Source: an uncultured Actinomycetes bacterium (GTDB lineage: Bacteria > Actinomycetota > Thermoleophilia > Gaiellales > Gaiellaceae). Taken from it: DNA of 64,000 bases. Within the stretch, counting starts at the first letter, position 1. Every line of letters begins with the position of its first letter. This document shows positions 10,658 through 53,944 of this stretch, one piece after another. The stretch is from NCBI GenBank assembly GCA_963816735.1, contig CAWFLY010000005.1, forward strand, positions 294,539 to 358,538. Direction: 5' to 3'. The notes under the pieces are model-generated. The model had not been told where the DNA came from. It ran no database searches and saw only the letters and a list, made by a program, of their open reading frames with translations. The position numbers were made by a program, and so were the translations under genes.

Positions 10658-10674
10658 TGTCCCGCTCGGGATTC

Positions 10675-12609: not shown

Positions 12610-12640
12610 GTAGAACGCCGCTCGTGGCCGCCCACCGGAA

Positions 12641-12845: not shown

Positions 12846-12882
12846 GAAGAGCGCGCCGAGAAGCCCACCGCGTAACCTCCGC

Positions 12883-39606: not shown

Positions 39607-39643
39607 GAAGCCCCTGGCAACGCAGAGGATCCCCAGGGGCTTC
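39607..39643 (-). terminator. Hairpin after the cupin gene (11-bp perfect stem GAAGCCCCTGG/CCAGGGGCTTC, 15-nt loop)
   Basis: Read directly, 19 nt downstream of the cupin stop on the minus strand. Confidence 0.45.
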
Positions 39644-39661
39644 GACCTCTCTCCGCGAGGA

Positions 39662-40129
39662 TCACGAGGCGGCAGGTGTGAGCCCGTGGCGGTGCATCAC
39701 GTCAGCGATTGCCGCCAGGTCGGGCGGGCCGGTGGTGGCCGCGTCGACGATCGCACCGACCTCGCGGAAGTAATCGGGGCCGAGGATGCCCGGGGTGACG
39801 ATCGCGAGCGCCTTGGCGTCGACGTCCCCGGTGTTGGCGAAGTGGTGGACTGCGCCGCGTGGAATGCAGATGACTTCGCCGGGGCCGACTTCGTGAGACT
39901 CGCCCTCGATCGTCCACACGAGCGTCCCCTCGAGGCCGTAGATCGTCTCCTCATAGCCGTCGTGGCTGTGCGGCGCCGCGATCCTCGAACCGGCGGGGAC
40001 GTCGAACTCGAACATCGCCACCGATCCGTCCGACTGCTCGCCCTCGAGCAGGAACCGGATGGTCATCTCTCCCACTTTGATCTCCTCGCGCGTGTTCTCC
40101 GTTATCACCTTGCGCCTCCTTGCTGTCAT
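39662..40129 (-). CDS. Cupin domain protein
   Basis: FEFDVPAGSRIAAPHSHDGYEETIYGLEGTL, GEVICIPRGAVHHF. ATG 40129 was chosen because the longer ORF would overlap the marR start. Confidence 0.7.
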   Translation of the reverse strand: MTARRRKVITENTREEIKVGEMTIRFLLEGEQSDGSVAMFEFDVPAGSRIAAPHSHDGYEETIYGLEGTLVWTIEGESHEVGPGEVICIPRGAVHHFANTGDVDAKALAIVTPGILGPDYFREVGAIVDAATTGPPDLAAIADVMHRHGLTPAAS

Positions 40130-40151
40130 TGGTAAAGTAACTTGACAATAC

Positions 40152-40631
40152 ATGGCAGCCCCACGTAAGTCAAGTCGCTTTACAACACCCCCAAGTGGCG
40201 GAACCGAGCCACTCGGCCCGCCGCTGATTGGAGCCCTGCTTCGCATGCCGTGGGAGGCCGTGCAGGAACGGATGCTCGGACGGCTCCAGACTCAGGGGTT
40301 CGCCGACTTCGACGCCGCCTACCTGACGGTCTTCCAGTACCCCGGCCCGCAAGGGCAAAGACCGGCAGAGCTCGCCGGCCGGCTGCGCATCAGCAAGCAG
40401 GCACTCAACCACCTGCTGGGACAGCTTGAACGGCGCGGCTACCTCACACGGGAAGCCGACCCAACCGACGGACGCTCCAAGCGCATCCGCCTCACGGCGC
40501 GCGGAACCAACGCTGGTCTTGTCATCCGCGAGGCGGTCACCGAAATGGAAGACGCCTGGGCGCAACAGCTCGGCCCCGAGCGCTTTACCCAGCTCCGCAC
40601 CCTCCTCCAGGAGCTCGACCGCGTCGAGTAG
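40152..40631 (+). CDS. MarR family transcriptional regulator
   Basis: Intact 159 aa. Winged helix LAGRLRISKQALNHLLGQLERRGYLTREADPTDGRSKRIRLT. Divergent from the cupin gene, with only 22 bp between the starts. Confidence 0.85.
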   Translation: MAAPRKSSRFTTPPSGGTEPLGPPLIGALLRMPWEAVQERMLGRLQTQGFADFDAAYLTVFQYPGPQGQRPAELAGRLRISKQALNHLLGQLERRGYLTREADPTDGRSKRIRLTARGTNAGLVIREAVTEMEDAWAQQLGPERFTQLRTLLQELDRVE

Positions 40632-40635
40632 CAGT

Positions 40636-40678
40636 GCCCCCGGCATGAGTCGAACATGCGCACGCGGATCAGGAAACG
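40636..40678. repeat. 43-bp copy of the 3' half of tRNA-Arg(CCU) (att-like direct repeat)
   Basis: tgcccccggcatgaGtcgaacatgcgcacgcggAtCaggaaac matches 53873-53915 at 40 of 43 positions in the same orientation. Confidence 0.85.
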
Positions 40679-41616
40679 GCGTGGTCGTTGGCTTGGGACT
40701 CGAGGAGGTCGCGCCGTTGCGCGAGCGCCGGTGACAGCGCCGCAGCAAGGATCAGGACGGTGCCGATCAGGATGATCCAGAAGAAGATCGCGATGACGAT
40801 CCCGAACGCGCCGTAGGTCGTCGAGTACCAGTTCAGCCAGTGGGTGAGCAAGAGCACGGAGATCAGCCGCAGGGCCACGAGGCAAAGCACGGTGAAGACG
40901 GCGCCGGGGACGAGGTTGCGTGTCGAGACGCGGTGATGGAGCAAGATCCGCGGCGCCCAGACAAAGAAGCCGAACAAGAGCGCCAGCCAGCCGAGATCAA
41001 GGACCCAGCCGAGCCAGGACGGCTCCCCTCTGAGAGCCCTTCCCTCGACTATGACGAGCGCCGCACCGAGGACGAGGGCCGAGAGGACCTCGACATACCG
41101 GGCCTGATCCGCGAGCACCGACTTGCCCAGGTCGATCCCCCAGGAGCGGGCGTGCACGATCTGCAACACACGGGGGAACCCGAGCCCGAAGAAGAAGAGG
41201 TCGACGATCGCAATCATGACCGCGGAGAACTTGTGCTCCCCGGTGCCGACCATCACCGACGAGAACAGCTGGGCGGTCGTTCCCTTCAGTCCGAGGCGGT
41301 GCTCGATCCGGTCGGCAAGAGCAGTCGGATCCTTGTACGAGTAGCTCGCAACGACGAGGAACACCGGCAGGAGCGTCAGGAGCAGGTATGCGCTCAGGAG
41401 GACGGCGAACAGCTGCCCGTTGGAAGCCTGGTAGCGGCGCACCCAGCCGATCGTGGCGCCCTTGCGTGAATCCGGCGGCTGGTTCTCGATCCAGAGACGG
41501 CCCCGCTCGGCAACCGCAGCACCTTTCGCGGCGGCCTTCTGCGCCCGAGCCGGGACGCGCGAGGGACGGGGCGACCCGCCGCCTCCCGGTGCCGGCTCAG
41601 TCGGCGCGCCGCTCAT
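40669..41616 (-). CDS. YihY/BrkB family membrane protein (paralog 1)
   Basis: Intact 315 aa, multi-TM, YGAFGIVIAIFFWIILIGTVLILAAAL. Its stop lies inside the att-like repeat. Confidence 0.75.
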   Translation of the reverse strand: MSGAPTEPAPGGGGSPRPSRVPARAQKAAAKGAAVAERGRLWIENQPPDSRKGATIGWVRRYQASNGQLFAVLLSAYLLLTLLPVFLVVASYSYKDPTALADRIEHRLGLKGTTAQLFSSVMVGTGEHKFSAVMIAIVDLFFFGLGFPRVLQIVHARSWGIDLGKSVLADQARYVEVLSALVLGAALVIVEGRALRGEPSWLGWVLDLGWLALLFGFFVWAPRILLHHRVSTRNLVPGAVFTVLCLVALRLISVLLLTHWLNWYSTTYGAFGIVIAIFFWIILIGTVLILAAALSPALAQRRDLLESQANDHAVS

Positions 41617-43108
41617 TCCCGCACGCTAATCGCAGTCCCGACGAAGCCGGAGCTAGACGCCCGTCTCGGCCGTGATCTTCCCGCTCTTTGACGGCCTTGC
41701 TGAACGTGTCGTAGTCGCGTTCGTTTTGGTCCGCGTAGGACTCGGCGAAGAGGGCGAGGGCACGGTCGAAGGTGTCGTTGGTGCCGAGGTAGCTCGCAAT
41801 CGCGATCGCATCTCCGGCGCGGGCGTGGGCGCGTGCGAGCTCGGAGGCGCACGCCTTTGCGTAGAAGGACATGATCGTGGGCTCCATCAGCTCGACAAGT
41901 GCGCTGCCTTTCTCGTCCCAGAGCTGACGGAGGTAGAAGTCGCGTTTGACGCCGTCGATGCCTTCGACCTTGACGTAGCCGAGCATGATGTCGCTCGCCG
42001 CCTGGGTGAGACGCTGGCCTTCGACGACGCGCTGGCCGTGGTTTGCGTAACTGCTCTTGCCGAGGAACCGCTCGAGCACCGACGCTTCTGCCTCCTTGAT
42101 CTGAAGGAAGAGCGGATCGTTGTCGTCGCGGCCGAGCAGGAGCATGATGTACGCCCTGGTGCCGACGCTGCCGACGCCGACGACCTTCCGAGCGGCGTGC
42201 ACGTAGCGGTACCGCTCGAGCAGCGTGCGGCGGTCGCCGGAGAGCGTGCGCCGGTAGGAGCGCAAGGCGCCGTGCAGGAAGTCGTCGAACTCGTGCGCGC
42301 GGTCGGCGGGGAAGAGATCCCCGATCGGAATCACGGTGGGAGGGTCAGCGGTGATGCGCCGCTCGCCGTCGACGATCTCGGTCAGCTTCGCGAACGCTTT
42401 GAGGCTGGTTTTTGTCCGCGTCTTCGCCACGTTCTGCTCTGCCCGCTTGCGCTCCTTTGACGTCGCGATCAGCTGCCCGCTGGCCATCAGATCCTCTACG
42501 TCGAGGCGCACGTACCAGAGGTTGAGGTTGCCCGTCGCGGCATAGCCGCTCATTGCCTCCCGGTACGCCTTTCCGACCGCGAGGTTGACGGCTGCCCGCT
42601 GCTTGTCGTCGAACCCACGGTCGCGCCCGGCGACGGCGAAACTCGCGGCGAGACGCTTCACGTCCCACTCGAACGGGCCTGGCAGCGTTTCGTCGAAATC
42701 GTTGACGCTGAACACCAGCCGACGATCCGGCGCCGCGAACGCACCGAAGTTCGACAAATGCGCGTCACCGCACAACTGCGTTTGCAGCCCCGTCCTCGCC
42801 GACGCCGCGAGATCAGCCGCCATCACGAGCGCCGCGCCCCGATAGAACGTGAACGGGGACACCAACATCCGCCCGTAGCGAATCGGCACCAGCTCCGGCA
42901 CCCGCGTCTTTGCCTGCTCCTCCAGCAACTCGACCGGGCTTACACGATCCGCCGACGGCTCCCACGCACCATGCGCGGAACGCGGAACCTCGGCCCGCGC
43001 CGCCTTCCCGCGCGCGACCCGCTCCTCCACGGTGAAATGCTCGACCCGCCCGGCCTTGCTCGACCGCGCGCTCACCTCATCAGTTGCAGTAGTGCCATCG
43101 GCGCTCAT
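41597..43108 (-). CDS. DUF2252 protein
   Basis: Intact 503 aa: LVPIRYGRMLVSPFTFYRGAA, GDAHLSNFG and VFSVNDFDE. 20-nt overlap with the downstream gene. Confidence 0.75.
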   Translation of the reverse strand: MSADGTTATDEVSARSSKAGRVEHFTVEERVARGKAARAEVPRSAHGAWEPSADRVSPVELLEEQAKTRVPELVPIRYGRMLVSPFTFYRGAALVMAADLAASARTGLQTQLCGDAHLSNFGAFAAPDRRLVFSVNDFDETLPGPFEWDVKRLAASFAVAGRDRGFDDKQRAAVNLAVGKAYREAMSGYAATGNLNLWYVRLDVEDLMASGQLIATSKERKRAEQNVAKTRTKTSLKAFAKLTEIVDGERRITADPPTVIPIGDLFPADRAHEFDDFLHGALRSYRRTLSGDRRTLLERYRYVHAARKVVGVGSVGTRAYIMLLLGRDDNDPLFLQIKEAEASVLERFLGKSSYANHGQRVVEGQRLTQAASDIMLGYVKVEGIDGVKRDFYLRQLWDEKGSALVELMEPTIMSFYAKACASELARAHARAGDAIAIASYLGTNDTFDRALALFAESYADQNERDYDTFSKAVKEREDHGRDGRLAPASSGLRLACGNERRAD

Positions 43109-43138
43109 TCAGTTGCCTCCCTCCGTCGCTTCGCCAGC

Positions 43139-43378
43139 TCAGGCCATCGCCTCGTCGGCCATCGGCGGCCGCGTGACCATGTAAGCGATCGCACCGATTA
43201 GCGGCACGAACATGATGAAAAGCAGCCACCCGGCTTTCGCCCAGCCACTGTGGTCGTGGCGCCTGAAGTTGTCGATCAAGATGAAGATCACGAAACCAAC
43301 CCAGATCACGAGTAGGAAGAAGATGAACATCGACCACATGATGTTCAAGAACGGATAGCTGCTGGCAAGAAGAGTCAT
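43139..43378 (-). CDS. PLDc_N domain small membrane protein
   Basis: Intact 79 aa with two TM helices, GWAKAGWLLFIMFVPLIGAIAYMV. Visibly AT-richer than its neighbours. Confidence 0.65.
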   Translation of the reverse strand: MTLLASSYPFLNIMWSMFIFFLLVIWVGFVIFILIDNFRRHDHSGWAKAGWLLFIMFVPLIGAIAYMVTRPPMADEAMA

Positions 43379-43412
43379 AGTCGAGCCTCTCTTTCTCTCG
43401 GATGGATGTCAG

Positions 43413-43443
43413 CTCCCTGTCCCCGTCGCACGGGGACAGGGAG
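43413..43443 (-). terminator. Hairpin after the DUF1269 gene (13-bp perfect stem CTCCCTGTCCCCG/CGGGGACAGGGAG, 5-nt loop)
   Basis: Read directly, 10 nt downstream of the stop at 43453. Confidence 0.5.
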
Positions 43444-43452
43444 CGCTGATTC

Positions 43453-43968
43453 CTAGCTCGCGACCGGTGCGGGTGCTGCGGCCTCGGCCTGCTTGACGCT
43501 GTCACTGTCGACCTCGTGCTTCGAGACCTTGTCGGCCTTCGGCAGCGCCTTCTCGATGTCGGCGGCCGAGCCCTCCTCGAACAACGCCACGATGGCGGAG
43601 CTTCCGGGCGGAACATCGTCCGCGACCTCGGCCTTGATCTCCTTCTTCTCGTGATGCGAGACGAGACCGCCGGTGGCGGCGCCGATGCCGGCGCCTACGG
43701 CTCCCGCTGCGAGGAACGCCGGCGGGAAGATCAGACCGATGAGCAGGCCGCCGGCGGCGCCGATGGCCGTGCCGACGCCGACCGTGTGGGCGGTGTCCTT
43801 CTCGTGGATCTTCCCGTCGGTGTCGCGGCTGACGAGCACGAGGCCGTCGACCGCGATCGTCCTGTCCTTCGCCAACTCCTTGATGTCGTCCCAGTCGGCC
43901 TGGGCGGCGTCCGGGTCGGCGTACGCGGCGATGTACAGAAAAGTGGGGGTGTCGCTGTCAGATCCCAT
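43453..43968 (-). CDS. DUF1269-like membrane protein (glycine-zipper)
   Basis: FLYIAAYADPDAAQADWDDI, DGLVLVSRDTDGKIH, a Gly-zipper GVGTAIGAAGGLLIG...GAVGAGIGAATGG, and SSAIVALFE. ATG 43968 has a GAGGAG SD. Confidence 0.65.
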   Translation of the reverse strand: MGSDSDTPTFLYIAAYADPDAAQADWDDIKELAKDRTIAVDGLVLVSRDTDGKIHEKDTAHTVGVGTAIGAAGGLLIGLIFPPAFLAAGAVGAGIGAATGGLVSHHEKKEIKAEVADDVPPGSSAIVALFEEGSAADIEKALPKADKVSKHEVDSDSVKQAEAAAPAPVAS

Positions 43969-44116
43969 GGGATCTCCTCTCGGTTGTAGTCCCTCTCCCC
44001 GAAACGTCTCACCTTCTGGGCCGTGGTTTGCGGGAACGAGGGTCAATCACCCTGGTGATTCCGATTTCCCCGCCGTGCCGGTACCCGCGGCCGTGTGAAA
44101 GGCTCCGAGCTGACTC

Positions 44117-45175
44117 ATGAGCCAACCCACGAAGATGTTTTCGGTCAATCGGAAGGCATTCAGTCTTCCCGCCGGCGTGGCCATCGGCGGAATCCTGCTG
44201 CTGATCTGGTTCGCCATCGCCGAGCTCGACCAACAGAAGTACGTCGTCAGCGTCATCTTCGCCGTCCTGACGACGGCCCTGAGCGACCCGGGCGGTGGAT
44301 ACCCGAAGCGGGCGCTGAGCATGGGTGCCTTCGGCCTCGGCGGTGCGGCGGTGACCGCCGTGGCGTTCTCCGTCGGAACTCACGCCTGGGGACTCGTGGT
44401 GCTCGCCCTCTTCGTGGTCACGTTGTCGGCCGGGTTGGCGGTGAAGTTCGGACTGCATCGATTCAGCGTGGGGTTATTGCTCAACATCTGGTTCGTCGTC
44501 GCTGTCTTCCTGCCGGTCAGTTACCGCGCCGCTCACGTCAAGACCACCGGCTGGGACCAGGCGCTGGCATGGCTGATCGGATCGGCATCGTGGATCGCGT
44601 TGATGGGCATCGTGTGGTTGCTGAGCAGGTGCAAATGGAAGCCGCGTCCGGTCATCGACCTCCCCGGTGAGCCCTTCGCCCCGGTCAAGCTCAGCCGACC
44701 CGTGGTGCTCTTCGCCCTCATCCGGGCCCTGGCCCTCGCAGCATCCGCCGCCATCGCCTACGGGTTCCACGAACCGAACGCAGATTGGATGGTGATCGCC
44801 ACCTTGATCGCGATGAAGCCGAGCCTCGAGCAGTCGAGGCTGGTGGGCCGTCAGCGCGTGATCGGCGCGGCCATGGGCGCGCTCGTGGCCATACCGATCT
44901 TGCTGGCAGTCCACGACAAGGACGCCTTGGTCGTGATCATCATCCTCCTGGCCGCGCTCGGGGCGTCCATCCACGGCGTGAACTACGCCTACTACACGGC
45001 TGCCATCGCCAGTGCGGCGCTCATCGCCGCAGACCTGCCACACCCCACCAACTATGCGGCCGAGGGTCGCCGGGTGCTCTTCACGTTCATCGGCGTGGGG
45101 ATCGCCGTGGTGGTCATGTTCATTGCGGACCGGATGAAAGAACGTTCGGCAACGGCCGCGCCGGCACCCGCGTGA
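44117..45175 (+). CDS. FUSC-like (aromatic acid exporter family) membrane protein
   Basis: Intact 352 aa, multi-TM, WMVIATLIAMKPSLEQSRLVGRQRVIGAAMGALVA. Confidence 0.6.
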   Translation: MSQPTKMFSVNRKAFSLPAGVAIGGILLLIWFAIAELDQQKYVVSVIFAVLTTALSDPGGGYPKRALSMGAFGLGGAAVTAVAFSVGTHAWGLVVLALFVVTLSAGLAVKFGLHRFSVGLLLNIWFVVAVFLPVSYRAAHVKTTGWDQALAWLIGSASWIALMGIVWLLSRCKWKPRPVIDLPGEPFAPVKLSRPVVLFALIRALALAASAAIAYGFHEPNADWMVIATLIAMKPSLEQSRLVGRQRVIGAAMGALVAIPILLAVHDKDALVVIIILLAALGASIHGVNYAYYTAAIASAALIAADLPHPTNYAAEGRRVLFTFIGVGIAVVVMFIADRMKERSATAAPAPA

Positions 45176-45200
45176 GTCTCAGGCGCGGTGTTCTCTAGCG

Positions 45201-45908
45201 TCAGGGCGGGCCAGGCAGCGAGAGGATCTGTTCGGCCGCCAGGAGCAGCAACAACGCGCCTGTTGCGAGCAACCCGTACCGCACACCGCGTGACGAGAAC
45301 TGGGTGCTGATGCCGACGAGGAAGAGCACGCTCGCGAGGACAAGGGTTACGCGCACGTAGTTGTCGCCCGTTCCTGCCGCATTTTGGCCCTGCGCGTAGT
45401 ACGCGTCGGCCTGCGAGTCGAGCGAACGCGAAAGGGCCTCCCCGATCGGTTTGTACTGCGGCATCGACTGCGGTCCCGGCGGCGCGTTCGGGTTCGTGAA
45501 CGGGTGGGTCGCAAGCCAGGCGACGAAAGCGACCTCGAACTGAGGTGGGAAGCGCTTCTCGGCCACGCGCATGCCGTTCTTGTTGCCGGCGATGTAGGCG
45601 CCGAACCAGGCGTTGAAGAGGAGCGCGTCTGCGGTGCGGTAGCCCAGCCCCTCCTGGAAGTAGCGGTTGGCCTTGGTCCGCGTCGCCGACGCCTTGGCGA
45701 GGTTCAGCGACGACTCGGTGCCCCACTTCGCGGCCGAGTAGCCGGACCAGGCCGCAGTGATGGTCACGATCGAGAGCAGCACTGCCCCGGCAAGCGAGAT
45801 CACCCGGTCGTGGCGGCTCGCCCCGGTGTGTCCGTTGGCGTGCTTGGCGTGCTTGGCGTGCTCGCCGATCTCCTTGCCGACCTCAGTTGCAGATAGCCCC
45901 TCGGGCAT
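45201..45908 (-). CDS. DUF4337-like membrane protein
   Basis: EVGKEIGEHAKHAKHANGH..RVISLAGAVLLSIVTITAAWSGYSAAKW, plus a C-terminal TM. The internal ATG 45908 is preferred. Confidence 0.5.
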   Translation of the reverse strand: MPEGLSATEVGKEIGEHAKHAKHANGHTGASRHDRVISLAGAVLLSIVTITAAWSGYSAAKWGTESSLNLAKASATRTKANRYFQEGLGYRTADALLFNAWFGAYIAGNKNGMRVAEKRFPPQFEVAFVAWLATHPFTNPNAPPGPQSMPQYKPIGEALSRSLDSQADAYYAQGQNAAGTGDNYVRVTLVLASVLFLVGISTQFSSRGVRYGLLATGALLLLLAAEQILSLPGPP

Positions 45909-46008
45909 GACGGCTCCGTTCTCGGTTCGCAGTCGACGGACCTGTGCGGCGAACAGGGTCAGACCGCCACGCGGCGGATCTGACCCTGTCATCGAGAGGC
46001 GCTGAAGG

Positions 46009-46341
46009 CTAGGCCTCCTGCGTCTCGTCGGTCTCGAGCTCAGCGAGGTCGATCGCGATGCCGAGCGCGCGCACGATGTTGCCCGTCGCCGACGCGACGC
46101 GTGCCGTTCCCACGATGGGCGCGATCGCAGTGAGGATGCCGCGAACGTCGTCCGCGTCGACGTCGAAGTCGGCGGCCGTGCCGAGGTTGTACAAGTATGA
46201 GACCGGCGGAGCGTCCATCGCCACGAGGGCGGCGATGCGTACGAGCATGACCTGCTCGGGATCGAGGGTCGTCGCCTCGATCGAGTCGGCGGTCATGCTG
46301 GCGAGCAGATCGAGGACTGGTGTCTCGGTCAGTTCCGGCAT
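46009..46341 (-). CDS. Carboxymuconolactone decarboxylase/AhpD-like small protein
   Basis: 111 aa from the ATG with an AAGGAG SD. MLVRIAALVAMDAPPVSY...DVRGILTAIAPIVGTARV. Confidence 0.55.
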   Translation of the reverse strand: MPELTETPVLDLLASMTADSIEATTLDPEQVMLVRIAALVAMDAPPVSYLYNLGTAADFDVDADDVRGILTAIAPIVGTARVASATGNIVRALGIAIDLAELETDETQEA

Positions 46342-46468
46342 GAGGATCTCCTTGTCTCGACGAGCTGTGCGGTCGTCGACGCCGCTACACGGCCCGAAGG
46401 ACCGTCTGCTTGGGGCACGCTCGACGTTACGCCGTCGGCCTCGCGGACGGGCGGGAGGCCGGCCGGAT

Positions 46469-48799
46469 TCACTCAGGTGAACGCGAACGACCGGCTTCAG
46501 CTCGCCCCAGCAGGCCGAGCGCGGTCGCGCGCGCGACGGCATCGGGGCGGGAGTTCGCGCCGAGCTTGCGGTAGAGCGCACGCGTGTGCGACCGGATCGT
46601 GTTGGGGGAGACGAACAGGTGCTCCCCGATCTCACGTGTCGACAGATCGCCGGCCAGCAGCCGGAGGACGGCGAGCTCCGCCTTGCTCGGTCGTTCGAGC
46701 ATCTCTCCGCTGTCGGCGTGAGCCGTTGCCGTCCCGAGCTCCTGTTCGACGTCCTCGACCAACGAGGCTAGTCGGCCGCCGTCCGGGAGCTCCTCGAGTG
46801 CTTTCCGTGCCGCTTGGAGAGTGGCATCCGCCCGGTCGAGGCGGCCGCGTTGGGTTTGCACCCTGGCGAGAAGCACGAGCAGCCAGGCGTGGTGGACGGT
46901 GGCGATCTCGTCCCTGAAGTAGTGCTCCGCGTAGGAGAGCTCGTGCTCGGCCTCCGCGAGCTTTCCCTCGCTTGCGAGGACGGCGCCGAGCGCCGTGGAC
47001 GCGTTTGCGCCGAGCCAGCTGCGGCTGGTGCCGATCCGGCCGACGACCGCCTTCGCCCTCTCGGCATGGCCCCGTGCGGACTCGAGCCACCCGCGCTCGA
47101 CCGCCACGAGCGCCAGTGTCGTCCGGGCGAGCGCATGGCTGGGAGGGCGGTGCTCGATGCTCGGATGCTCGATGACACTGAGGGCGACCTTCCACGCTTC
47201 GTCGAGGCTGCCCGCGAAGTAGAGAGCGAGCGCATACCCGGCAAGGGCGCCCGTGAGGAGCTCGTCCAACCCGGTACGGGCGAGCTCGACCGCGCGACGG
47301 CCGTCCTCGACCGCCCGTGCGACGCCTCCGTCGATCGTGATCGCGCGTTCCACCAGGGCGAACGCTTCGACGTACGGCGTAACACGCTCGGGGCGCTCTG
47401 CCTGCGCCCGCTCGACGATCCGAAGATACCGACGGTGCTCGATGGTGCCCTGACCGGCCATCACCGCGGCCGCCGCGGCGGCTACGGCGAGCTCCGGATG
47501 CTCGAGGACGTTCTCGTCCGGGAGCGGCCGAACCCATCGCAGCAACGTCCTCGTGAGTCCGCTCCTGATCAGCGGCATGTGGTGCTCGGCGAGCAACCGC
47601 GCAACGAGCTCGTCGTCACCCGCCGCAGCGGCGTGCTCGACCGCCTCCACCGGCAGTCCTTGCGACAACAGCCAGTCGGCGGCGCGCAGATGGATCCGTG
47701 CCGCCTCGCCCGGCTTCTGCGCTGAGAATTGAGCAACGGCGAACTCGGCAAACAATGCGTGGGCACGGAACCAGCCCCCTCGCTCCAGCCGGTGGATGAA
47801 CAGGTTCGAGCGCTCCAAGCCGGCCAGTACGGACGCCGAGTCGGTGCGCTCGAGCACAGCGTCGCAGAGTTCGGCGGTGAATCGGCCCAGAACCGAGGCT
47901 CCTTGCAGGAACGAGCGAGTCTCGTCGTCGAGCGACGCGAGGACTTCCTGGCTCAGGTACTCGACCACGAAGCGCTGGTCTCCCCCGAACCCGGACACGG
48001 CCTGGCGCGGGTCATCGACGCCCCGAAGCCAGAGCCCGGCGAGGACGAGCGCAGCGGGCCAGCCCTCGGTCTTCTCGACAAGCAGCTCGATCTCCTCCGC
48101 TCGGAGCTCGACCTGCCCTCGCTCGACGACCAGCTCGTGCGCCTCCGCGGCGGTGAAGGCCAGCTCGTCGGCACGCAGTTCCACGAGAGCGCCCCGAGCA
48201 CGCAGCCGCGCCAACCCGAGCCCGGGATCTGCCCGCGTGATGGCGAGGATGCGTGCGCTCGCCGGCAGATGTCTGAGCGCGAAGTCGATCGAGGCAAGAC
48301 ACTCCCGATCCGTCACCGCCTGAAGGTCGTCGAGCACGAGAGCCATCCCGGTGCCGTACGCGGCGATTGCGTTCATCAGCTCGTCGACGGCATGTTCGAG
48401 GGAGCTCCCCGCCACGCTCAGGGTCTGCAACGCGCTCCGCCCGAGCCCCTGCCGAACCCGATCGACGGCAGTCGCGACATACGTCCACAGCCGAACCGGA
48501 TCGTTGTCACCGTCGTCGAGCGTGACCCACGCGAGGGCGCCCTCCCGGTTCTCGCACCAGGCGCGCACCGCGGTCGTCTTGCCGTAGCCCGCCGGCGCCG
48601 CAACGAGCGTCAGTGGCACGCCTTCGCCCGCGTTGAGCGCCTGCAGAATGCGCGGCCGTTTGACGTGGTCACCACCCGCTCCCGGGGGCTGGAGCTTGGC
48701 CTCGACCAATGGCGGATTGTCGCCTGCTTCTCGGCGGCTACGCCGACCCTTCGCCAGCTCACGTGAATCCATCACCGTCATCGTGACGATTATTGCCAA
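46469..48799 (-). CDS. LuxR-family (LAL/MalT-like) regulator: ATPase, TPR-like and HTH domains
   Basis: Intact 776 aa. Walker A APAGYGKTT, Walker B LVLDDLQ, and the C-terminal LuxR HTH LSTREIGEHLFVSPNTIRSHTRALYRKLG. Confidence 0.85.
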   Translation of the reverse strand: MAIIVTMTVMDSRELAKGRRSRREAGDNPPLVEAKLQPPGAGGDHVKRPRILQALNAGEGVPLTLVAAPAGYGKTTAVRAWCENREGALAWVTLDDGDNDPVRLWTYVATAVDRVRQGLGRSALQTLSVAGSSLEHAVDELMNAIAAYGTGMALVLDDLQAVTDRECLASIDFALRHLPASARILAITRADPGLGLARLRARGALVELRADELAFTAAEAHELVVERGQVELRAEEIELLVEKTEGWPAALVLAGLWLRGVDDPRQAVSGFGGDQRFVVEYLSQEVLASLDDETRSFLQGASVLGRFTAELCDAVLERTDSASVLAGLERSNLFIHRLERGGWFRAHALFAEFAVAQFSAQKPGEAARIHLRAADWLLSQGLPVEAVEHAAAAGDDELVARLLAEHHMPLIRSGLTRTLLRWVRPLPDENVLEHPELAVAAAAAAVMAGQGTIEHRRYLRIVERAQAERPERVTPYVEAFALVERAITIDGGVARAVEDGRRAVELARTGLDELLTGALAGYALALYFAGSLDEAWKVALSVIEHPSIEHRPPSHALARTTLALVAVERGWLESARGHAERAKAVVGRIGTSRSWLGANASTALGAVLASEGKLAEAEHELSYAEHYFRDEIATVHHAWLLVLLARVQTQRGRLDRADATLQAARKALEELPDGGRLASLVEDVEQELGTATAHADSGEMLERPSKAELAVLRLLAGDLSTREIGEHLFVSPNTIRSHTRALYRKLGANSRPDAVARATALGLLGRAEAGRSRSPE

Positions 48800-48886
48800 C
48801 TGACGGCTACCGGCAGGTTAGGGCAGCCCCTGGTGTAGTCGTGGTGTCTGCAGGCGTCCGGTGTCCGTGGATTCCCGGATGCCGAG

Positions 48887-48967
48887 GCGATCGGAATCAC
48901 CAGGGTGATCGGCCTGCGCCTGTCGTGAGCGCCCGGCGGGAGGTGCCATCCTCGGAGCTGTGCCCGG
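48887..48967 (+). repeat. 81-bp conserved non-coding element, copy 1
   Basis: Aligns without gaps to 49579-49659 at 69 of 81 positions. Contains the 14-bp palindrome ATCACCAGGGTGAT (48896-48909) and an SD-like GGGAGG. Ends 23 nt before the lipoprotein ATG. Confidence 0.9.
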
Positions 48968-48990
48968 AATCGACCCGAGGAGGTTTCACG

Positions 48991-49575
48991 ATGACCGTTG
49001 ACCGGAGTGGACAAAGGTCTCCCGCCCGCAGCTGGGCTACCGCCGTGCCGATGCTGGCACTGTTCGCCGTCCTGGCTCTCGTCGCCGCGGGCTGTGGTGG
49101 CAGCAGCAGCTCCGACACGAAGGCGAACGACGCCTACGCGAGCGGCGTTTGCAGCGCAATCGGCACCTGGGTGCAGCAGATCAAGAGCATCACCTCGAGC
49201 GGCTTCACCGGCGGCATCTCCAAGGCAACACTGGACTCGAAGATCGCCCAGGCGGAGACCGCCACCAAGACACTCGCGAAGCAGATCAAGGCCGTTCCCC
49301 CTCCCAATACCTCGGACGGGCAGGCGGCGAAGGCGCAGGTCGATCAGTTCTCGAGCGATGCGGCGAGCACGGCCAGTACCGCACAAACCGCCGTCGCCTC
49401 TATCCCGGCCGACGCCTCGGCCACGACGGTCGCGGTGGCGCTCCTACCGCTCGCGCCGCAGGTCAAGAGCCTCGTGACCACGGCACAGACGACAATCACG
49501 TCGCTCCAGACGGCGAAGAACTCGCTCGCCTCGGCCTTCAAGAGCGCCGACTCCTGCCAGAGCCTCGGCGGCTAG
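48991..49575 (+). CDS. Lipoprotein (lipobox LVAAGC), Ala/Ser/Thr-rich
   Basis: AVPMLALFAVLALVAAGCGGSSSS. ATG 48991 has a GAGGAGG SD. Confidence 0.65.
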   Translation: MTVDRSGQRSPARSWATAVPMLALFAVLALVAAGCGGSSSSDTKANDAYASGVCSAIGTWVQQIKSITSSGFTGGISKATLDSKIAQAETATKTLAKQIKAVPPPNTSDGQAAKAQVDQFSSDAASTASTAQTAVASIPADASATTVAVALLPLAPQVKSLVTTAQTTITSLQTAKNSLASAFKSADSCQSLGG

Positions 49576-49578
49576 CGG

Positions 49579-49659
49579 GCAATCGGAATCATCAGGGTGA
49601 TCGGCTCCCTCCCGTCGTGAGCCCGCGGCGGGAGGTGCCATCCTCGGTGACGTGCCCGG
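49579..49659 (+). repeat. 81-bp conserved non-coding element, copy 2
   Basis: See copy 1. Its 3' end overlaps the GTG start (49652) of the small ORF. CCTCCCG (49608-49614) is complementary to CGGGAGG (49629-49635). Confidence 0.9.
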
Positions 49660-49882
49660 CAGGACGTATCGGCTGATCGTCGCAGGGGAGCTCAGCGACC
49701 AGGTGGGGGCCGCCTTCGAGGGCATGACCCTCACGCGCGCCGACGGGACGACGACGTTGAGCGGACACATCCGCGACCAGTCGCAGCTGCAGGGTCTGCT
49801 GCAGCGCGTCTCCGATCTCGGGCTCACCCTGCTCGAGGTGAAAGGCTCCGAGGCCGAGCCGCCAATAGGATCGCCGTCGTGA
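49652..49882 (+). CDS. Small conserved-looking hypothetical protein (76 aa)
   Basis: YRLIVAGELSDQVGAAFEGMTLTRADGTTTLSGHIRDQSQLQGLLQRVSDLGLTLLEV. Its stop overlaps the MFS GTG start (GTGA). Confidence 0.5.
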   Translation: MPGRTYRLIVAGELSDQVGAAFEGMTLTRADGTTTLSGHIRDQSQLQGLLQRVSDLGLTLLEVKGSEAEPPIGSPS

Positions 49883-51519
49883 CGACCGCACCGACTGCGT
49901 CCTCGGTAGCTGCCAAGGCTTCCGGTCTCGTACTGCTCACGCTGGCATCGGCGCAGTTCGTCATGGCCCTGGACATGACGGTGATGAACACGGCTATCGC
50001 GACGGTCGCCAAAGACGTCGGGACCGATGTGACCGGGATCCAGCTGGCGATCACGCTCTACACGCTGGTGATGGCGTCGTTCATGATCACCGGCGGCAGG
50101 GTCGGGGAGATCATCGGCCGGAAGCGCGCGTTCACGATCGGGTGCGTCGTCTACGCGTGCGGGTCGCTCACGACGGCGCTGTCTCACAGCCTGACGGTGC
50201 TGATCATCGGCTGGTCGTTCCTGGAGGGCTTCGGCGCGGTGCTGATCTTTCCGGCGATCGTCGCGCTCGTCGCCTCGAACTTCGGCAAGCCGGACCGGCC
50301 GCGCGCGTACGGGCTCGTGGCTGCCGCCGGCGCGATGGCCGCCGCGGTCGGGCCGGTGATCGGCGGCTTCTTCACGAGTTATGCGTCGTGGCGGTGGGTG
50401 TTCGTCAGCGAGGTGCTGATCGTGATCGTGATTCTCGCCCTCGCGCGGCGGGTGAACGACACACCGCCCGAGAAGGGCGCCAGGCTCGACCTGGTCGGCA
50501 CGGCACTGTCGGCCGCCGGCCTCGGCCTGATCGTGATCGGCACCTTGAAGTCGGGTGCGTGGGGGTTCGTGCGGGCCAAGTCGGGTGCTCCCGAGTGGCT
50601 CGGGCTCTCACCGGTGATCTGGCTTGTGCTTGCGGGCTGCGTGGTGGTTGGCCTGTTCGCGATGTGGGAGAACCGGCGGATCGCCCGCGGCCAGGCTGCG
50701 CTGATCGACCCGAAGATGCTGCGGAACATCCAGCTGCGCGACGGCGTCACGTCGTTCTTCTTCCTGTTCCTCGTGCAGGCCGGGATCTTCTTCGTCGTGC
50801 CGCTGTTCCTGTCGGTCGCGCTCGGTATGTCGGCGGTCGCGACGGGCATGCATCTGCTGCCGCTCTCGCTGATGTTGCTGCTCTTCGCGGCCGGAGTCCC
50901 CAAGGTGTTCCCGCACGCGAACCCGCGGCTGGTGATCCGGCTCGGCTTCATCGCCATGTTCGGCGGGCTCGTGCTCCTGCTCGCCTTGCTCGACTACGGC
51001 GCCGGAGCGGCGATCGTCACGTGGCCGCTGCTGCTCGCGGGTGCCGGAATCGGCTCGATCGCCTCCCAGCTGGGAGCCGTGACCGTGTCGTCGGTGCCCG
51101 ACGAGCAGAGCGGCGAGGTCGGCGGAATCCAGAACACCGGCACGCAGCTCGGCGCGTCGATCGGCACGGCGCTGGCGGGCGCCGTGCTCATCTCGGCGCT
51201 GACCGCGTCGTTCATTACCGGCGTCCAGAACAACCCGGCCGTCCCCAACCGCGTCGCCGCCCAGGCTCAGACGAACCTCGCCGGCGGCATCCCGTTCATC
51301 TCCGACGCCGACCTGAAGGCCGCGCTCTCCGACGCGCACGTCCCCCCGCGGACCGCCGACGCGATCGTGCAGACGAACGAGCAGAGCCGGATCGACGGGC
51401 TGCGCGTCGCCGTCTCGATCCTCGCGCTCTTCGCGCTCATCGCCCTGCTGTTCACCGGGGGCATCCCGACAACCCAACCCGGCGCCCAACCCAAACCCAA
51501 GAACACGAAGCGGAGGTGA
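49879..51519 (+). CDS. MFS transporter, DHA2 (EmrB/QacA-like, 14-TMS) family
   Basis: Intact 546 aa: LDMTVMNTAIATVAKDVG, GGRVGEIIGRKRAF, and about 14 hydrophobic segments. Confidence 0.85.
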   Translation: MTTAPTASSVAAKASGLVLLTLASAQFVMALDMTVMNTAIATVAKDVGTDVTGIQLAITLYTLVMASFMITGGRVGEIIGRKRAFTIGCVVYACGSLTTALSHSLTVLIIGWSFLEGFGAVLIFPAIVALVASNFGKPDRPRAYGLVAAAGAMAAAVGPVIGGFFTSYASWRWVFVSEVLIVIVILALARRVNDTPPEKGARLDLVGTALSAAGLGLIVIGTLKSGAWGFVRAKSGAPEWLGLSPVIWLVLAGCVVVGLFAMWENRRIARGQAALIDPKMLRNIQLRDGVTSFFFLFLVQAGIFFVVPLFLSVALGMSAVATGMHLLPLSLMLLLFAAGVPKVFPHANPRLVIRLGFIAMFGGLVLLLALLDYGAGAAIVTWPLLLAGAGIGSIASQLGAVTVSSVPDEQSGEVGGIQNTGTQLGASIGTALAGAVLISALTASFITGVQNNPAVPNRVAAQAQTNLAGGIPFISDADLKAALSDAHVPPRTADAIVQTNEQSRIDGLRVAVSILALFALIALLFTGGIPTTQPGAQPKPKNTKRR

Positions 51520-51524
51520 GCACG

Positions 51525-51983
51525 ATGGATGAGAAGCAGATCGCAGAGCTCGAAGCCGAGCAATCGATGTTCGTGCAGACAGCGCAGGGCATCACGAGCG
51601 ACGGCGGGACCCTCACGCTCCAAGGGATCACGCCCTCGACGCTTTATTTCTCCGACCGGCCCCAGCGGGTCGTCGGGCACATGAGCACGACGGACTTCGT
51701 CGACCTGTGGGACGAAGGCGACAACAGCTTCGAGGCCGACCCGCCGAACGCGGTGCTCGCGTTCCTCCAGCCGGGCGACGAGGTGCCCGAGGACGCGGTG
51801 GTGGTGATCCAGGAGCCGCGCCTCGACGACGGTGAGCTCTCGTACTCGATCGAGGTCCTCGACGGGAAGGTTCCGGCGACGGCCGGGCCGGTCACGCTGT
51901 TCATCGACCCGTTCGGCAGGCCGCTCTCGCCCGTGTCGGTGTGCGGCATGCGGAGGCGCGAACGGAGGCGCGATCGGCGCTGA
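51525..51983 (+). CDS. Hypothetical 152-aa protein with an Arg-rich tail
   Basis: ATG 51525 has a GGAGG SD 8 nt upstream. STLYFSDRPQRVVGHMSTTDFVDLW. No family named. Confidence 0.55.
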   Translation: MDEKQIAELEAEQSMFVQTAQGITSDGGTLTLQGITPSTLYFSDRPQRVVGHMSTTDFVDLWDEGDNSFEADPPNAVLAFLQPGDEVPEDAVVVIQEPRLDDGELSYSIEVLDGKVPATAGPVTLFIDPFGRPLSPVSVCGMRRRERRRDRR

Positions 51984-52006
51984 CGGGTGAGAATACCGGC
52001 CTGGCG

Positions 52007-52867
52007 ATGAGCAGCCCCGAGACGACATCCGGACATGCTCGTCTCCGGGCCGTGCACGATTGGCTGGGCCGCCGAGCCGACACGAGCGCCGGCCGGCTGG
52101 CGTTGCAGTGGTTCCGCGCCTACTTCGCGGCGAGCCGCAGCTCCGGGTGCGCGGTGACCGTGTACTCGACGCTGTCGGTGCTCCCGGCCGTGCTCGTGTT
52201 CGCTGCCGTCCTCCACCCGTCGAGCGGGGACACGACTGTCTTCGCACAACGTCTGGTCACCCACCTGAAGCTGAACGGAGACAGCGCCAGCCTCGTCCAG
52301 GGCACGTTCGGCAACGCTTCGTCGAACGCCCTGGCGGCGAGCCTTACGGTGTTCGTCAGCTTCCTTCTGTGGGGCATAGGCATCGGCCAGATCTACCAGG
52401 ACGTCTACGCACGCGCCTGGGGGATCAAGGTCAACTCGCTGGCCGACCAGGGATTGTTCGCGATCTTCTTCTTCGTCCTCACCGGCGTCCTCGCGCTCGC
52501 CGTCCTCGCGTCCGCGCGGTTGCACGAGACGGGCTGGCTCGTGCTGATACCCGTTTGGCTCGTCGGCTCGACCGTGTTCTGGCTCTGGGTGCCGCGGTTC
52601 CTGCTGCACCGGAGGATCGGGCTGCGCGCGCTGCTGCCCGGCGCGCTGCTCGCCTCCGTCGTGGTCGGTGGGACGGCCGCCACCTCGCCATTCTTTCTGG
52701 CAGCTCCGTTGAACGCGAACGGCAGGACATTCGGCGCGTTCGGGGTGGTGATCACGTTCATCGGCGCAGTGTTCGTGCTGATCACGATTTCGCTGGTGTG
52801 CGCGGTCTTCTCGCCCGTGTGGGCGAACTGGCGCGAGACGGAGAAGGAACGCCACAGCACGCCGTGA
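52007..52867 (+). CDS. YihY/BrkB family membrane protein (paralog 2)
   Basis: Intact, multi-TM, FGAFGVVITFIGAVFVLITISLV. Homologous in layout to 40669-41616. Confidence 0.7.
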   Translation: MSSPETTSGHARLRAVHDWLGRRADTSAGRLALQWFRAYFAASRSSGCAVTVYSTLSVLPAVLVFAAVLHPSSGDTTVFAQRLVTHLKLNGDSASLVQGTFGNASSNALAASLTVFVSFLLWGIGIGQIYQDVYARAWGIKVNSLADQGLFAIFFFVLTGVLALAVLASARLHETGWLVLIPVWLVGSTVFWLWVPRFLLHRRIGLRALLPGALLASVVVGGTAATSPFFLAAPLNANGRTFGAFGVVITFIGAVFVLITISLVCAVFSPVWANWRETEKERHSTP

Positions 52868-52874
52868 CTCTCGC

Positions 52875-53399
52875 CTACGGAACGGGCAGTCGATTGCCGA
52901 GATCGCGGAGCATCGACTCGACACGCTTGAGGTCCGTGGCGAGCTCGTCCAGCCGCCCCTCGAGGCGCGAGTCCTGCGCCGCATCGTCCGCATCTGTCGC
53001 CTGAGCACGTTCGCTTTGGGCGCGCGTGACGAAGGTCGACGTGATCGCGGCCGTGACGATCGCCAAGAAGGCGATACCTTCCAACATCACGAATACACCG
53101 ACGAGCCTGCCGGCGACGTCTTTCGGTGTGACGTCGCCATAGCCGACGGTCGTCACCGTCTGGATCGACCACCACATTCCGACCCAGACATTCGCGTACT
53201 CGCGGTGGTCGAGTACCCGGATCAAGATGCCACCGCCGACGACGACCGCCGCCGTGGCCATGACGATCACGCTCGCGGCAATCCGGATCGAGGGCGGCTC
53301 GCGCAGGAACTTCGACAAGCGCCGCTCGACCAGACTCGCTGGAGCGGCGCGAACCTTCCGGCCGGCGTCGGCGATCGGCTTGCGGCGCGGACTCGTCAC
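52875..53399 (-). CDS. Two-TM potassium channel (pore-only)
   Basis: Selectivity filter TVGYGD in WWSIQTVTTVGYGDVTP, flanked by two TM helices. The GTG 53399 start is tentative. Confidence 0.75.
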   Translation of the reverse strand: MTSPRRKPIADAGRKVRAAPASLVERRLSKFLREPPSIRIAASVIVMATAAVVVGGGILIRVLDHREYANVWVGMWWSIQTVTTVGYGDVTPKDVAGRLVGVFVMLEGIAFLAIVTAAITSTFVTRAQSERAQATDADDAAQDSRLEGRLDELATDLKRVESMLRDLGNRLPVP

Positions 53400-53455
53400 C
53401 GAATTTCGCCGACTCTCACCTCGAGCAAGGTACGCCCGAGATCGGACACGCCCAA

Positions 53456-53824
53456 CTACCGGGCCTGGTCGTTCCTTCTCTCCCTCAACCGATTCCACGG
53501 CCACACGCCGTCGATCTCGACGTCGAGCGAGAAGCTGAGCAGGATCCGGATCAGGACGATGATTCCGAGCACGGTCACGCTCTGGAAGGTCTGATCGACG
53601 ACGACGGTGCGGACGATGTCCGCGACGATGAGCACTTCGAGCCCGAGCAGAATGCACCGGCCGAGATTGCGGCGAAGCCGTTCGTACGACCCAGCTCGTC
53701 TCGCGTCTGTGGCTGCGTCGCGCAGAAACGAGAGGAACGCGCCCAGTCCACCGAGGACCATGATGGCTGTGCCGACCGTCTCGACGACCTTGACGACCAC
53801 CGAAATCCGCTGCTCGTAGCTCAC
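53456..53824 (-). CDS. DUF1622 membrane protein
   Basis: RRNLGRCILLGLEVLIVADIVRTV...LGIIVLIRILLSFSLDVE. GTG 53824 was chosen because the longer ORF runs through the tRNA gene. Confidence 0.65.
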   Translation of the reverse strand: MSYEQRISVVVKVVETVGTAIMVLGGLGAFLSFLRDAATDARRAGSYERLRRNLGRCILLGLEVLIVADIVRTVVVDQTFQSVTVLGIIVLIRILLSFSLDVEIDGVWPWNRLRERRNDQAR

Positions 53825-53872
53825 GGACGAGAGGCTACTCCCATCAACGAGACGCCCTGCGGTCTGATCCGA

Positions 53873-53944
53873 TGCCCCCGGCATGAATCGAACATGCGCA
53901 CGCGGTTTAGGAAACCACTGCTCTATCCACTGAGCTACGGGGGC
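53873..53944 (-). tRNA. tRNA-Arg (anticodon CCU), 72 nt, CCA not encoded
   Basis: Minus-strand fold: GCCCCCG-TA-GCTC-AGTGGATA-GAGC-A-GTGGT-TTCCTAA-ACCGC-GTGC-GCATG-TTCGATT-CATGC-CGGGGGC-A. All four stems pair (one G-U). Confidence 0.9.

Follow-up and report, generated by a model that had tools for sequence, protein, structure and literature searches.

An integrase-less gene block beside tRNA-Arg(CCU) of an uncultured Gaiellaceae bacterium as a probable module of a tandem island array

The subject of this analysis is a 13.2-kb block of genes in a 64-kb stretch of DNA (64,000 nt of contig CAWFLY010000005.1, referred to as the window) from an uncultured bacterium of the family Gaiellaceae. The block lies between an intact tRNA-Arg(CCU) gene, which is the sole ARAGORN tRNA of the window, and a displaced 43-nt copy of the 3' half of this gene. 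A first-pass annotation, made by reading the sequence alone, had placed the tRNA on the minus strand at exactly the position called by ARAGORN and Rfam (Table 1), and had taken the enclosed genes for an island which is either decayed or mobilised in a non-canonical way. The data presented below indicate that the block is probably cargo without an integrase of its own, forming one module of a tandem island array on tRNA-Arg(CCU), in which the 43-mer represents an attachment site (att) scar.

The repeat itself is well defined. The spacing of 13.2 kb and the identity of 40 out of 43 positions, both claimed in the first-pass annotation, were borne out (the distance is 13,238 bp start-to-start), while the coordinates given there for the copy, 40636-40678, proved to be one base too high. 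The identity sets in 2 bases within the anticodon stem, on its 5' strand, and ends exactly at the discriminator base, and the sequences flanking the tRNA gene and its copy are unrelated to each other. The window contains two matches to the 43-mer, whereas 100 dinucleotide-preserving shuffles gave none. Beyond these two, no further or degraded tRNA fragment was detected in the 64 kb, with up to 13 mismatches permitted for the 43-mer and up to 5 for 25-mers; the window thus holds a single fragment, and serial fragments are seen in a relative (L089; labels of this type denote individual related loci). Same-orientation 3' segments with the same endpoints, from the anticodon loop to the 3' end, occur in four other genomes, and all copies found lie downstream of tRNA-Arg, which argues against a dispersed repeat unrelated to this gene. 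The 43-bp repeat has canonical endpoints and is not expected by chance; it represents a genuine att scar, as the first reading of a site-specific integration into tRNA-Arg had supposed, and tyrosine integrases use this site. The GACTC T-loop variant of the copy is present also in functional tRNAs elsewhere, which fits the suggestion that the copy represents the original 3' half of the host gene.

The displaced, non-functional fragments of the window, L031, L056, L082, and L088 each carry the compensatory T-stem variant of the tRNA of their own genome (GCATG/CATGC, ACAAG/CTTGT, or GCAAG/CTTGC). This correspondence between fragment and tRNA may be a result of same-population donors, of gene conversion, or of repeated cycles of excision and integration.

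Since the genome is 69% GC, genes were called by GC content at the third codon position (GC3) and then scanned against Pfam. This confirmed most of the gene list proposed initially, namely two YihY/BrkB paralogues (YihY_A and YihY_B), DUF2252, PLDc_N, DUF1269, FUSC, LAL-LuxR, MFS, K+ channel, and DUF1622 proteins. The labels "DUF4337-like" (the 263-aa membrane protein) and "AhpD-like" (the 110-aa protein) found no Pfam match at E ≤ 0.01. A Streptomyces plasmid homologue of the 110-aa protein is annotated as carboxymuconolactone decarboxylase. The lipoprotein label is plausible from the signal peptide followed by Cys. The LuxR orthologues carry the WHD_MalT domain (PF25873).

Table 1. Positions of the tRNA-Arg gene, its displaced copy, the genes of the block, and the adjoining features in the window
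Feature	Position	Strand	Basis or remark
Terminator-like hairpin (GAAGCCCCTGG...CCAGGGGCTTC)	39607-39643 (interval 39607-39653)	.	Conserved at junction
Cupin	39662-40246	-	Pfam
MarR	40245-40631	+	Pfam
attR-type core, displaced copy of tRNA-Arg positions 30-72	40635-40677	-	40/43 identical
YihY/BrkB paralogue A (YihY_A)	40669-41616	-	Pfam PF03631
DUF2252 protein	41597-43108	-	Pfam PF10009, E=6e-137
PLDc_N small membrane protein	43139-43378	-	Pfam PF13396
DUF1269/glycine-zipper membrane protein	43453-44046	-	Pfam PF06897
Partial inverted copy of the operator-like element	44041-44090	.	DUF1269/FUSC divergent promoter
FUSC_2 (fusaric-acid-resistance-like) membrane protein	44117-45175	+	Pfam PF13515
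263-aa membrane protein	45201-45992	-	No Pfam match; GC3 call; conserved in L082, L084, L085
110-aa carboxymuconolactone-decarboxylase/AhpD-like protein	46009-46341	-	No Pfam match at E ≤ 0.01
LAL-type LuxR regulator (AAA_16 + GerE)	46469-48799	-	Pfam
82-nt promoter/operator-like element, copy 1, palindrome ATCACCAGGGTGAT	48886-48967	+	Conserved in L083, L085-L087
Putative lipoprotein	48991-49575	+	Sequence; no Pfam match
82-nt promoter/operator-like element, copy 2	49578-49659	+	85% identical to copy 1
76-aa small protein, first in MFS operon	49652-49882	+	GC3 call; gene called at same place in L081-L087
MFS transporter (MFS_1)	49879-51519	+	Pfam PF07690
YihY/BrkB paralogue B (YihY_B)	51941-52867	+	Pfam PF03631
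Pore-only K+ channel (Ion_trans_2)	52875-53440	-	Start approximate, from 187-aa L082 orthologue
DUF1622 membrane protein	53456-53800	-	Pfam, E=2e-22; begins about 70 nt from tRNA 3' end
attL-type core, 3' 43 nt of tRNA-Arg	53873-53915	-	
tRNA-Arg(CCU), intact	53873-53944	-	ARAGORN (CCT call); Rfam RF00005, 65 bits

No recombinase, transposase, relaxase, transfer, replication, or phage gene was revealed by Pfam in the six-frame open reading frames (ORFs) of at least 60 aa between 40.5 and 54.0 kb; beyond the genes already identified, only DUF1622 and a marginal DUF6215 were matched. Because the called genes and the six-frame ORFs are both negative, including for phage structural and replication domains, we consider the block to be devoid of such functions, as the first-pass annotation had stated for recombinases. 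Prophage, integron, transposon, and AICE (actinomycete integrative and conjugative element) readings were rejected by the same search, which detected no hallmark gene. The recombinases found in two related loci (L031 and L015, see below) have no relative in the 64-kb window. The block also has the most atypical tetranucleotide profile of the window (z from +0.7 to +2.6) and a lower GC content (67.2% versus 69.3%), so that the proposed comparison of composition inside and outside the block supports its accessory nature.

Since palindromic elements are confined to its promoters, the block gives the impression of a closed regulon for membrane and ion-transport functions, governed by a LuxR-type regulator of its own. 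The palindromic core ATCACC-NN-GGTGAT belongs to a 25-nt element of which the window has three copies versus zero expected, all of them inside the block and at promoter positions; two of these copies form part of the 82-nt repeat. The sites of the operator-like element are upstream of the lipoprotein gene, upstream of the operon of the 76-aa protein and MFS genes, and in the divergent DUF1269/FUSC promoter. Judging from this arrangement, the LAL-LuxR protein is probably the block's own regulator and the 82-nt element probably its operator. The 82-nt element also holds a GGGAGG motif resembling a ribosome-binding site.

To place the tRNA-Arg site in the context of the lineage, about 175 related loci were compared. 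The class-III aminotransferase gene beside tRNA-Arg served as an anchor for 80 species-level loci (69-91% identity), all of them from metagenome-assembled genomes of Gaiellaceae or Thermoleophilia, and in none of these 80 do the block genes stand beside tRNA-Arg. In the 43 loci with a called tRNA-Arg(CCU), the DNA located 3' of the tRNA diverges within 2 bases, and no shared P' arm follows the intact gene beyond a CT or TC dinucleotide. A total of 146 Pfam families were recorded in 142 GC3-supported ORFs (taken from the 5 kb that directly follow those tRNAs and from the modules of L088 and L089), and hardly any neighbour family is common to the loci. In L031, the fragment is identical to the tRNA at 43/43 positions and encloses 3.6 kb, in which a tyrosine integrase of about 390 aa (R...HxxR...Y), split by one frameshift, abuts the tRNA and is followed by a Fic/DOC gene; a cognate tyrosine integrase therefore exists at this tRNA inside a perfect repeat. 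The L056 fragment, also 43/43 identical, encloses 7.4 kb with HD+PRTase-CE and HNH genes, and the L082 fragment (41/43) encloses 1.2 kb with a CaCA antiporter gene. A jackhmmer profile built from the integrases found revealed only three tyrosine recombinases in all of the approximately 175 loci. The tRNA-Arg(CCU) site is thus a hypervariable integration hotspot which harbours tandem arrays, and the initial view of one island between two att sites has to be replaced, on the evidence of the relatives' loci, by that of one module of such a hotspot.

Two of these loci deserve separate mention. In the 7.4-kb island of L056 (4307-7165 and 1605-2291), the HD+PRTase-CE and HNH genes are defence-like, and a 497-aa ORF without a Pfam match adjoins tRNA-Arg. 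In L015, a complete large serine recombinase gene (8411-9874) is located 1 nt from tRNA-Arg.

The tandem structure is most pronounced in L089. In this locus, a cupin-cupin-MarR group is followed at once by a 41-nt tRNA-Arg fragment, a joint homologous to that of the window, and two more fragments occur at spacings of about 3.3 kb. The three fragments in series delimit modules without integrase, which encode TetR/MFS/AHSA1/cyclase proteins, a solute-binding protein with HD-GerE, and a two-component system with an ABC transporter. The fragments (6930-13831) share, on the module side, an arm which spans 140 nt or more and abounds in (C/G)AGCGGAC repeats; to judge from their sequence, these arms look like retained arm sites of an integrase or Xis. 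A fourth copy of the arm (5351-5384) lies beyond the cupin genes, where no fragment is recognisable. Elsewhere among the loci, an arm of this type gave one weak match, in L013, and none in the window.

The distal side of the block is composed of the MarR and cupin genes. The first-pass annotation regarded MarR as the distal boundary, which is supported by the MarR-fragment joint in L089; since different cargo follows this joint there, the joint is older than the present cargo. MarR orthologues are common, while the MarR-cupin pair is absent from L082 and L002, and other left-hand contexts occur in L089-L093. A synteny breakpoint is shared at 39652/3, where the conserved DUF1800-side DNA starts in the window, L002, and L082; for a decayed tRNA fragment at this breakpoint, alignment scores in the three loci are within the shuffle range. 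L002 has only the CaCA antiporter between tRNA-Arg and the hairpin (tRNA-1.15 kb-DUF1800, without MarR or cupin). In L091, MarR is followed by two cyclase/STAND genes (6.1 kb), tRNA-Arg, and the aminotransferase, and no fragment is present. The whole stretch from the tRNA to about 39653 is therefore variable island space. Given the break in synteny at 39653 and the fourth arm beyond the cupin genes of L089, the MarR-cupin pair is probably an older module of the same array.

A clean element terminus is not what the distal end presents; there is instead a derived fusion inside the last codons of the YihY_A gene. Its stop codon lies within the displaced 43-mer, and the convergent MarR gene stops 3 nt away. 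The orthologues of YihY_A all end natively at 313 aa, and only in the window and L088 are the native last residues swapped for the 43-mer-encoded "...AVS" with stop. L088, the closest relative of the left flank (88-91% nucleotide identity over 28.9-40.6 kb of the window), has the order DUF1501-DUF1800-cupin-cupin-MarR, then a different 5.4-kb module and the 43-mer, at which the contig ends; this 43-mer is preceded by the YihY_A end "acgaccacgcc", as in the window. The common joint between YihY_A and the fragment is as expected if the joint travels with the block.

To what extent the block is confined to tRNA-Arg can be judged from its relatives. The LuxR gene has hundreds of them at 63-90% identity, and the block or a rearranged variant of it was found in at least five contexts, with a nucleotide identity to the window block of mostly 84-94% (segments 74-94%). 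In L082 it is present at the same locus as in the window. It lies beside ketosynthase and HAD genes in L084, between ferredoxin/Pyr_redox genes and peptidase M32 (PepM32) in L085, before DUF6345 and cyclase genes in L174, between arginase and PFOR in L081, and between tRNA-Met or tRNA-Val and tRNA-Glu in L083, L086, and L087.

The L085 context is of particular importance. Its self-comparison revealed a 45-nt direct repeat (3998-4042/19577-19621, 44/45 identical) which brackets the block and which, by comparison with L103, represents positions 31-74 of tRNA-Asn. As intact tRNAs the two copies were rejected (ARAGORN and Rfam are both negative); they are tRNA-Asn fragments. Anchoring on PepM32 in metagenomes yielded 80 contigs (L094-L173), in 44 of which an intact tRNA-Asn(GTT) stands upstream of PepM32, often directly adjacent. 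The closest relative (L103, 94%) has the order tRNA-Asn-h117-PepM32 and no block, i.e., an empty site. Since the same host flank follows the right-hand copy in L085 and the intact tRNA-Asn in L103, this copy is a typical attR; in the left-hand copy the 5' half of the tRNA is missing, and it is therefore regarded as an internal array joint. The polarity of the block is alike at both tRNAs: the K+-channel end faces the tRNA, while the YihY_A end is at the displaced fragment.

The tRNA-Asn(GTT) gene upstream of PepM32 represents a second hotspot, and several contigs there have fragments enclosing small integrase-less islands. For example, L134 (5562-8091) carries a 2.5-kb island without integrase in a perfect 44-nt repeat, with a GC content of 0.63 versus 0.70 for the locus.

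The occurrence of the block at two different tRNAs, together with the two YihY paralogues at its opposite ends and several uncharacterised proteins, could suggest a hidden recombinase among DUF2252, the YihY pair, or the ORFs lacking a Pfam match, which would itself insert the block into tRNAs. We hold this to be highly improbable: the YihY, DUF1269, PLDc_N, and FUSC proteins and the 263-aa protein are membrane proteins, no resemblance to a nuclease or recombinase fold is seen at the sequence level, other modules at the same sites carry entirely different genes, and a conventional integrase for this att site is available in L031.

The same polarity at two tRNAs also bears on the suggestion that the block is shuttled actively, being currently mobile and re-targeted between tRNA-Arg and tRNA-Asn by integrases acting in trans, with tRNA 3' halves serving as integron-like cassette sites. 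Integrase-less modules in perfect or near-perfect repeats are common at both tRNAs (L056, L134, and the L089 array), tyrosine integrases are as scarce as stated above, and the L089 modules keep long conserved arms, all of which would be in favour of such shuttling. Against it, the joints in the window lack arm-like sequence and the distal one lies inside a gene; the three mismatches of the copy indicate that the integration was not recent; neither a circular form nor a helper integrase nor an attP-bearing vehicle came to light in the window or IMG/VR; and no demonstrated mechanism would account for a change of att specificity in the absence of an integrase in cis. We therefore regard active shuttling as rather improbable and, between the two options left by the first-pass annotation, favour a decayed or cis-mobilisable module over an active cassette system served in trans.

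The loci with other tRNA neighbours gave further observations on the block. Long-range repeat searches found no tRNA fragment in L081, L083, L084, and L087; in L083 and L087 they returned short matches between operator elements only, and in L086 only a weak 35/40 match composed of the tRNA-Met 3' end and a terminator. The rearranged variant in L083 has tRNA-Glu (13524-13596) directly after DUF1269. In L087 (13754-16447), a helix-turn-helix gene, a recombinase fragment, and a 323-aa tyrosine integrase gene stand between DUF1269 and tRNA-Glu; this small element is another tRNA-linked insertion beside the block.

Some peculiarities were also noted inside the block. Shortly before the K+ channel gene there is a fragment paralogous to the 3' portion of the 76-aa ORF, and a 46-nt inverted match with 83% identity connects 49806-49851 with 53406-53451 of the window; L086 and L087 have a fuller copy of the 76-aa-type small gene ahead of the K+ channel. 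ARAGORN called an odd 95-nt "tRNA-Gly(gcc)" between YihY_B and MFS in L084 (6183-6277) and L087 (6314-6408), and the corresponding 420-bp intergenic region of the window (51520-51940) has no gene and no ARAGORN or Rfam call.

The age of the block relative to its surroundings was addressed by the identity at third codon positions between the window and L082. In the flanks it is 0.81 for the aminotransferase, 0.81 for DUF1800, and 0.75 for DUF1501, while the block genes give 0.93 (263-aa membrane protein), 0.90 (MFS), 0.89 (DUF2252), and 0.85 (LuxR), with the lipoprotein (0.75) as the sole exception; i.e., 0.85-0.93 for all block genes but one versus 0.75-0.81 for the flanks. Moreover, the block copies from the unrelated contexts of L084 and L085 are approximately as close to that of the window as the L082 copy. 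As far as sequence comparison can tell, these values fit a more recent exchange of the block than of the flanks, although part of the difference may be due to stronger constraint or to codon bias.

Several observations weigh against the block being an integrated module of the tRNA-Arg array. One comes from L082, where the order is tRNA-CaCA antiporter-43-mer-cupredoxin-block-hairpin-DUF1800: here the block lies outside the bracket, the 3' remnant of YihY_A has native-type downstream sequence and no joint with an Arg fragment, and no tRNA fragment was found at the proximal boundary of the block. The ends of the block differ between the Arg and Asn contexts, so that no conserved termini or arms could be defined. 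In the 64-kb window, the search for a helper integrase was negative. IMG/VR has no match to the att 41-mer and no DUF2252 relative, and PLSDB gave only distant single-gene matches and no plasmid vehicle. The empty site anticipated by the first-pass annotation, with tRNA-Arg directly adjoining the MarR/cupin pair, was not found among the related loci, the nearest states being L091 (MarR-6.1 kb-tRNA, no repeat) and L002. Finally, the block genes have orthologue-like relatives throughout the family at 63-90% identity, which is also compatible with vertical inheritance and rearrangement. The first-pass annotation had named a conserved gene order without the repeat as evidence against an island, and L082 goes halfway towards it: the order is kept, and a 43-mer is present between the tRNA and the block. 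Since no single event interconverts the states of the window, L082, and L002, several insertions and deletions have to be assumed.

The junction between DUF2252 and the DUF1800-side hairpin in L082 (17029-17130) consists of a 30-nt YihY_A remnant (FWIILIGTVL) and a tandem duplication "caccgtcctgaacgca", and by its sequence looks like a microhomology-mediated deletion. The DUF1800, DUF1501, and aminotransferase genes of L082 are in many frame-shifted pieces, as is typical of an uncorrected long-read assembly, and for this reason should not be read as pseudogenes.

These points lead to the strongest alternative: that the block is a vertically inherited accessory part of the chromosome in a rearrangement-prone region and never integrated site-specifically. 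The 43-mer would then be a scar of unrelated small elements, which local deletion, insertion, or homologous replacement put on the far side of the block. Besides the L082 arrangement with its native YihY_A end, such an origin would agree with the smooth, orthologue-like identity gradients of LuxR, MarR, and YihY_A across Gaiellaceae, with a MarR-fragment joint that predates the current content, with the illegitimate-looking fusion inside a gene at the distal joint, and with the lack of an integrase and arms at the block. It is less easily reconciled with the fact that genomes with a divergence of only about 10% carry the block in five or more unrelated contexts, with the bracketing tRNA-Asn fragments and demonstrable empty site of the L085 context, and with the recurrence in L088 of the YihY_A-43-mer joint, after which a different module follows. 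In addition, the block is less diverged than its flanks and compositionally atypical, and 79 of 80 related species do not have it at this locus. We consider this alternative to be unlikely, though deserving serious attention.

The evidence for a module of the tRNA-Arg array comprises, on the one hand, the repeat, the lack of any recombinase gene, the hotspot together with the arrays, and the cognate integrase of L031, and, on the other hand, the recurrence of the block, including at a second tRNA, its lower divergence, and its atypical composition. We infer from this the block's own entry by site-specific recombination as well as the route of its mobilisation, and the block is best read as a decayed or cis-mobilisable module. 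One can suggest the following scenario for its origin. Tyrosine integrases of the L031 type would recombine attP with the 43-bp tRNA segment which starts in the anticodon loop and includes the 3' end; a new 3' half would be supplied by the element, and the old 3' half of the host gene would be displaced downstream as a fragment. Repeated integrations, deletions between fragments, and the loss of integrases or their supply in trans may then have resulted in a series of modules which have tRNA fragments at their borders and are mostly without integrase. The module of the window would represent a self-regulated membrane and ion-transport gene set with LAL-LuxR and three operator-like repeats. We suppose that it spreads among Gaiellaceae as passenger DNA, probably by carriage or co-mobilisation by integrase-bearing neighbours (accretion), or that it descends from a larger ancestral element which lost its integrase. 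In this genome the module is probably fixed by now, since the distal joint has become part of a coding sequence and shows no arm-like sites.

A broader possibility is that Gaiellaceae possess a cassette-like system, in which integrases supplied in trans would insert, excise, and reorder modules of 1-15 kb, themselves without integrase, at tRNA genes. This we regard as doubtful. If true, it would mean that tRNA 3' halves act as recombination sites and that a 13-kb module has moved between the tRNA-Arg and tRNA-Asn arrays.

Gaiellaceae are an abundant, uncultured soil lineage for which, to our knowledge and with no literature search aimed at this point, no mobile elements have been described. 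The presented analysis documents tRNA-anchored hotspots in this family at tRNA-Arg(CCU) and tRNA-Asn(GTT), with modules mostly lacking an integrase at both sites. The type of island is already known; what is unusual is the occurrence of the same module at two different tRNAs in a little-studied lineage. If the modules move in trans, the spread of islands without integrase could be studied here in a natural system; otherwise, the locus is a well-resolved case of island decay and turnover, from which it follows that a tRNA and its fragment do not by themselves delimit a single insertion event.

Islands integrated into tRNA genes usually carry an integrase inside, next to the tRNA. The block of the window shares with these canonical islands the intact tRNA, the direct repeat, and the atypical composition, and differs from them in having no integrase. 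Among actinobacterial elements, the AICEs (pSAM2, SLP1) integrate in the 3' end of tRNA genes, with an identity of about 40-60 bp from the anticodon loop and a size of 9-24 kb. The block resembles them in its actinobacterial host, in the 43-bp att geometry from the anticodon loop to the 3' end, and in size, while int, xis, rep, and FtsK-like tra genes were not detected in it by Pfam and its content is all cargo.

Another parallel is provided by the cis-mobilisable elements (CIMEs) of Streptococcus and the model of their mobilisation by accretion, reportedly developed by Pavlovic et al. in 2004 and Bellanger et al. in 2011; PMC3146451 also names them. Similarly to a CIME, the block has att sites on both sides, is devoid of genes for recombination or transfer, and occupies a site which is used in a related genome by an integrase-bearing element (L031). 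In contrast to a CIME, it shows no functional att arms: the inner flank of the 43-mer is the YihY_A coding sequence, and no arm or motif cluster of the L089 type is present in the window. No integrative and conjugative element or conjugation module was seen in any related locus, and tandem modules were seen only in the relatives L082, L088, and L089.

The tycheposon islands of Prochlorococcus are adjacent to tRNAs, with successive integrations pushing older elements inward, and contain scattered partial tRNAs, degenerate remnants, and adaptive transport and uptake cargo (Hackl et al., bioRxiv 10.1101/2020.12.28.424599). The linkage to tRNA, serial integration, partial tRNAs, and transport cargo are common to both systems. 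However, tycheposons have their own tyrosine recombinase and a replication module, hallmark genes which the block lacks, and the lineage (Thermoleophilia) and GC content are different here.

The closest description is that of the tandem ssrA islands of Dehalococcoides, which are arranged serially downstream of one small RNA gene, are delimited by direct repeats of its 3' end, and have strain-variable content (McMurdie et al. 2011, PMC3146451). In 15 of them, about half, the integration module is absent, and the authors interpreted these as possibly cis-mobilisable, with accretion as the means of movement (PMC3146451). The target there is tmRNA with a repeat of 20 bp, while here it is a tRNA with a 43-bp core starting from the anticodon loop; the cognate enzyme is a CcrB-like serine recombinase there and a tyrosine recombinase (L031) here; and the window holds only one repeat, while its module is found also at a second tRNA. 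Common to both systems are serial islands delimited by fragments of the target gene, variable content, and members without an integrase.

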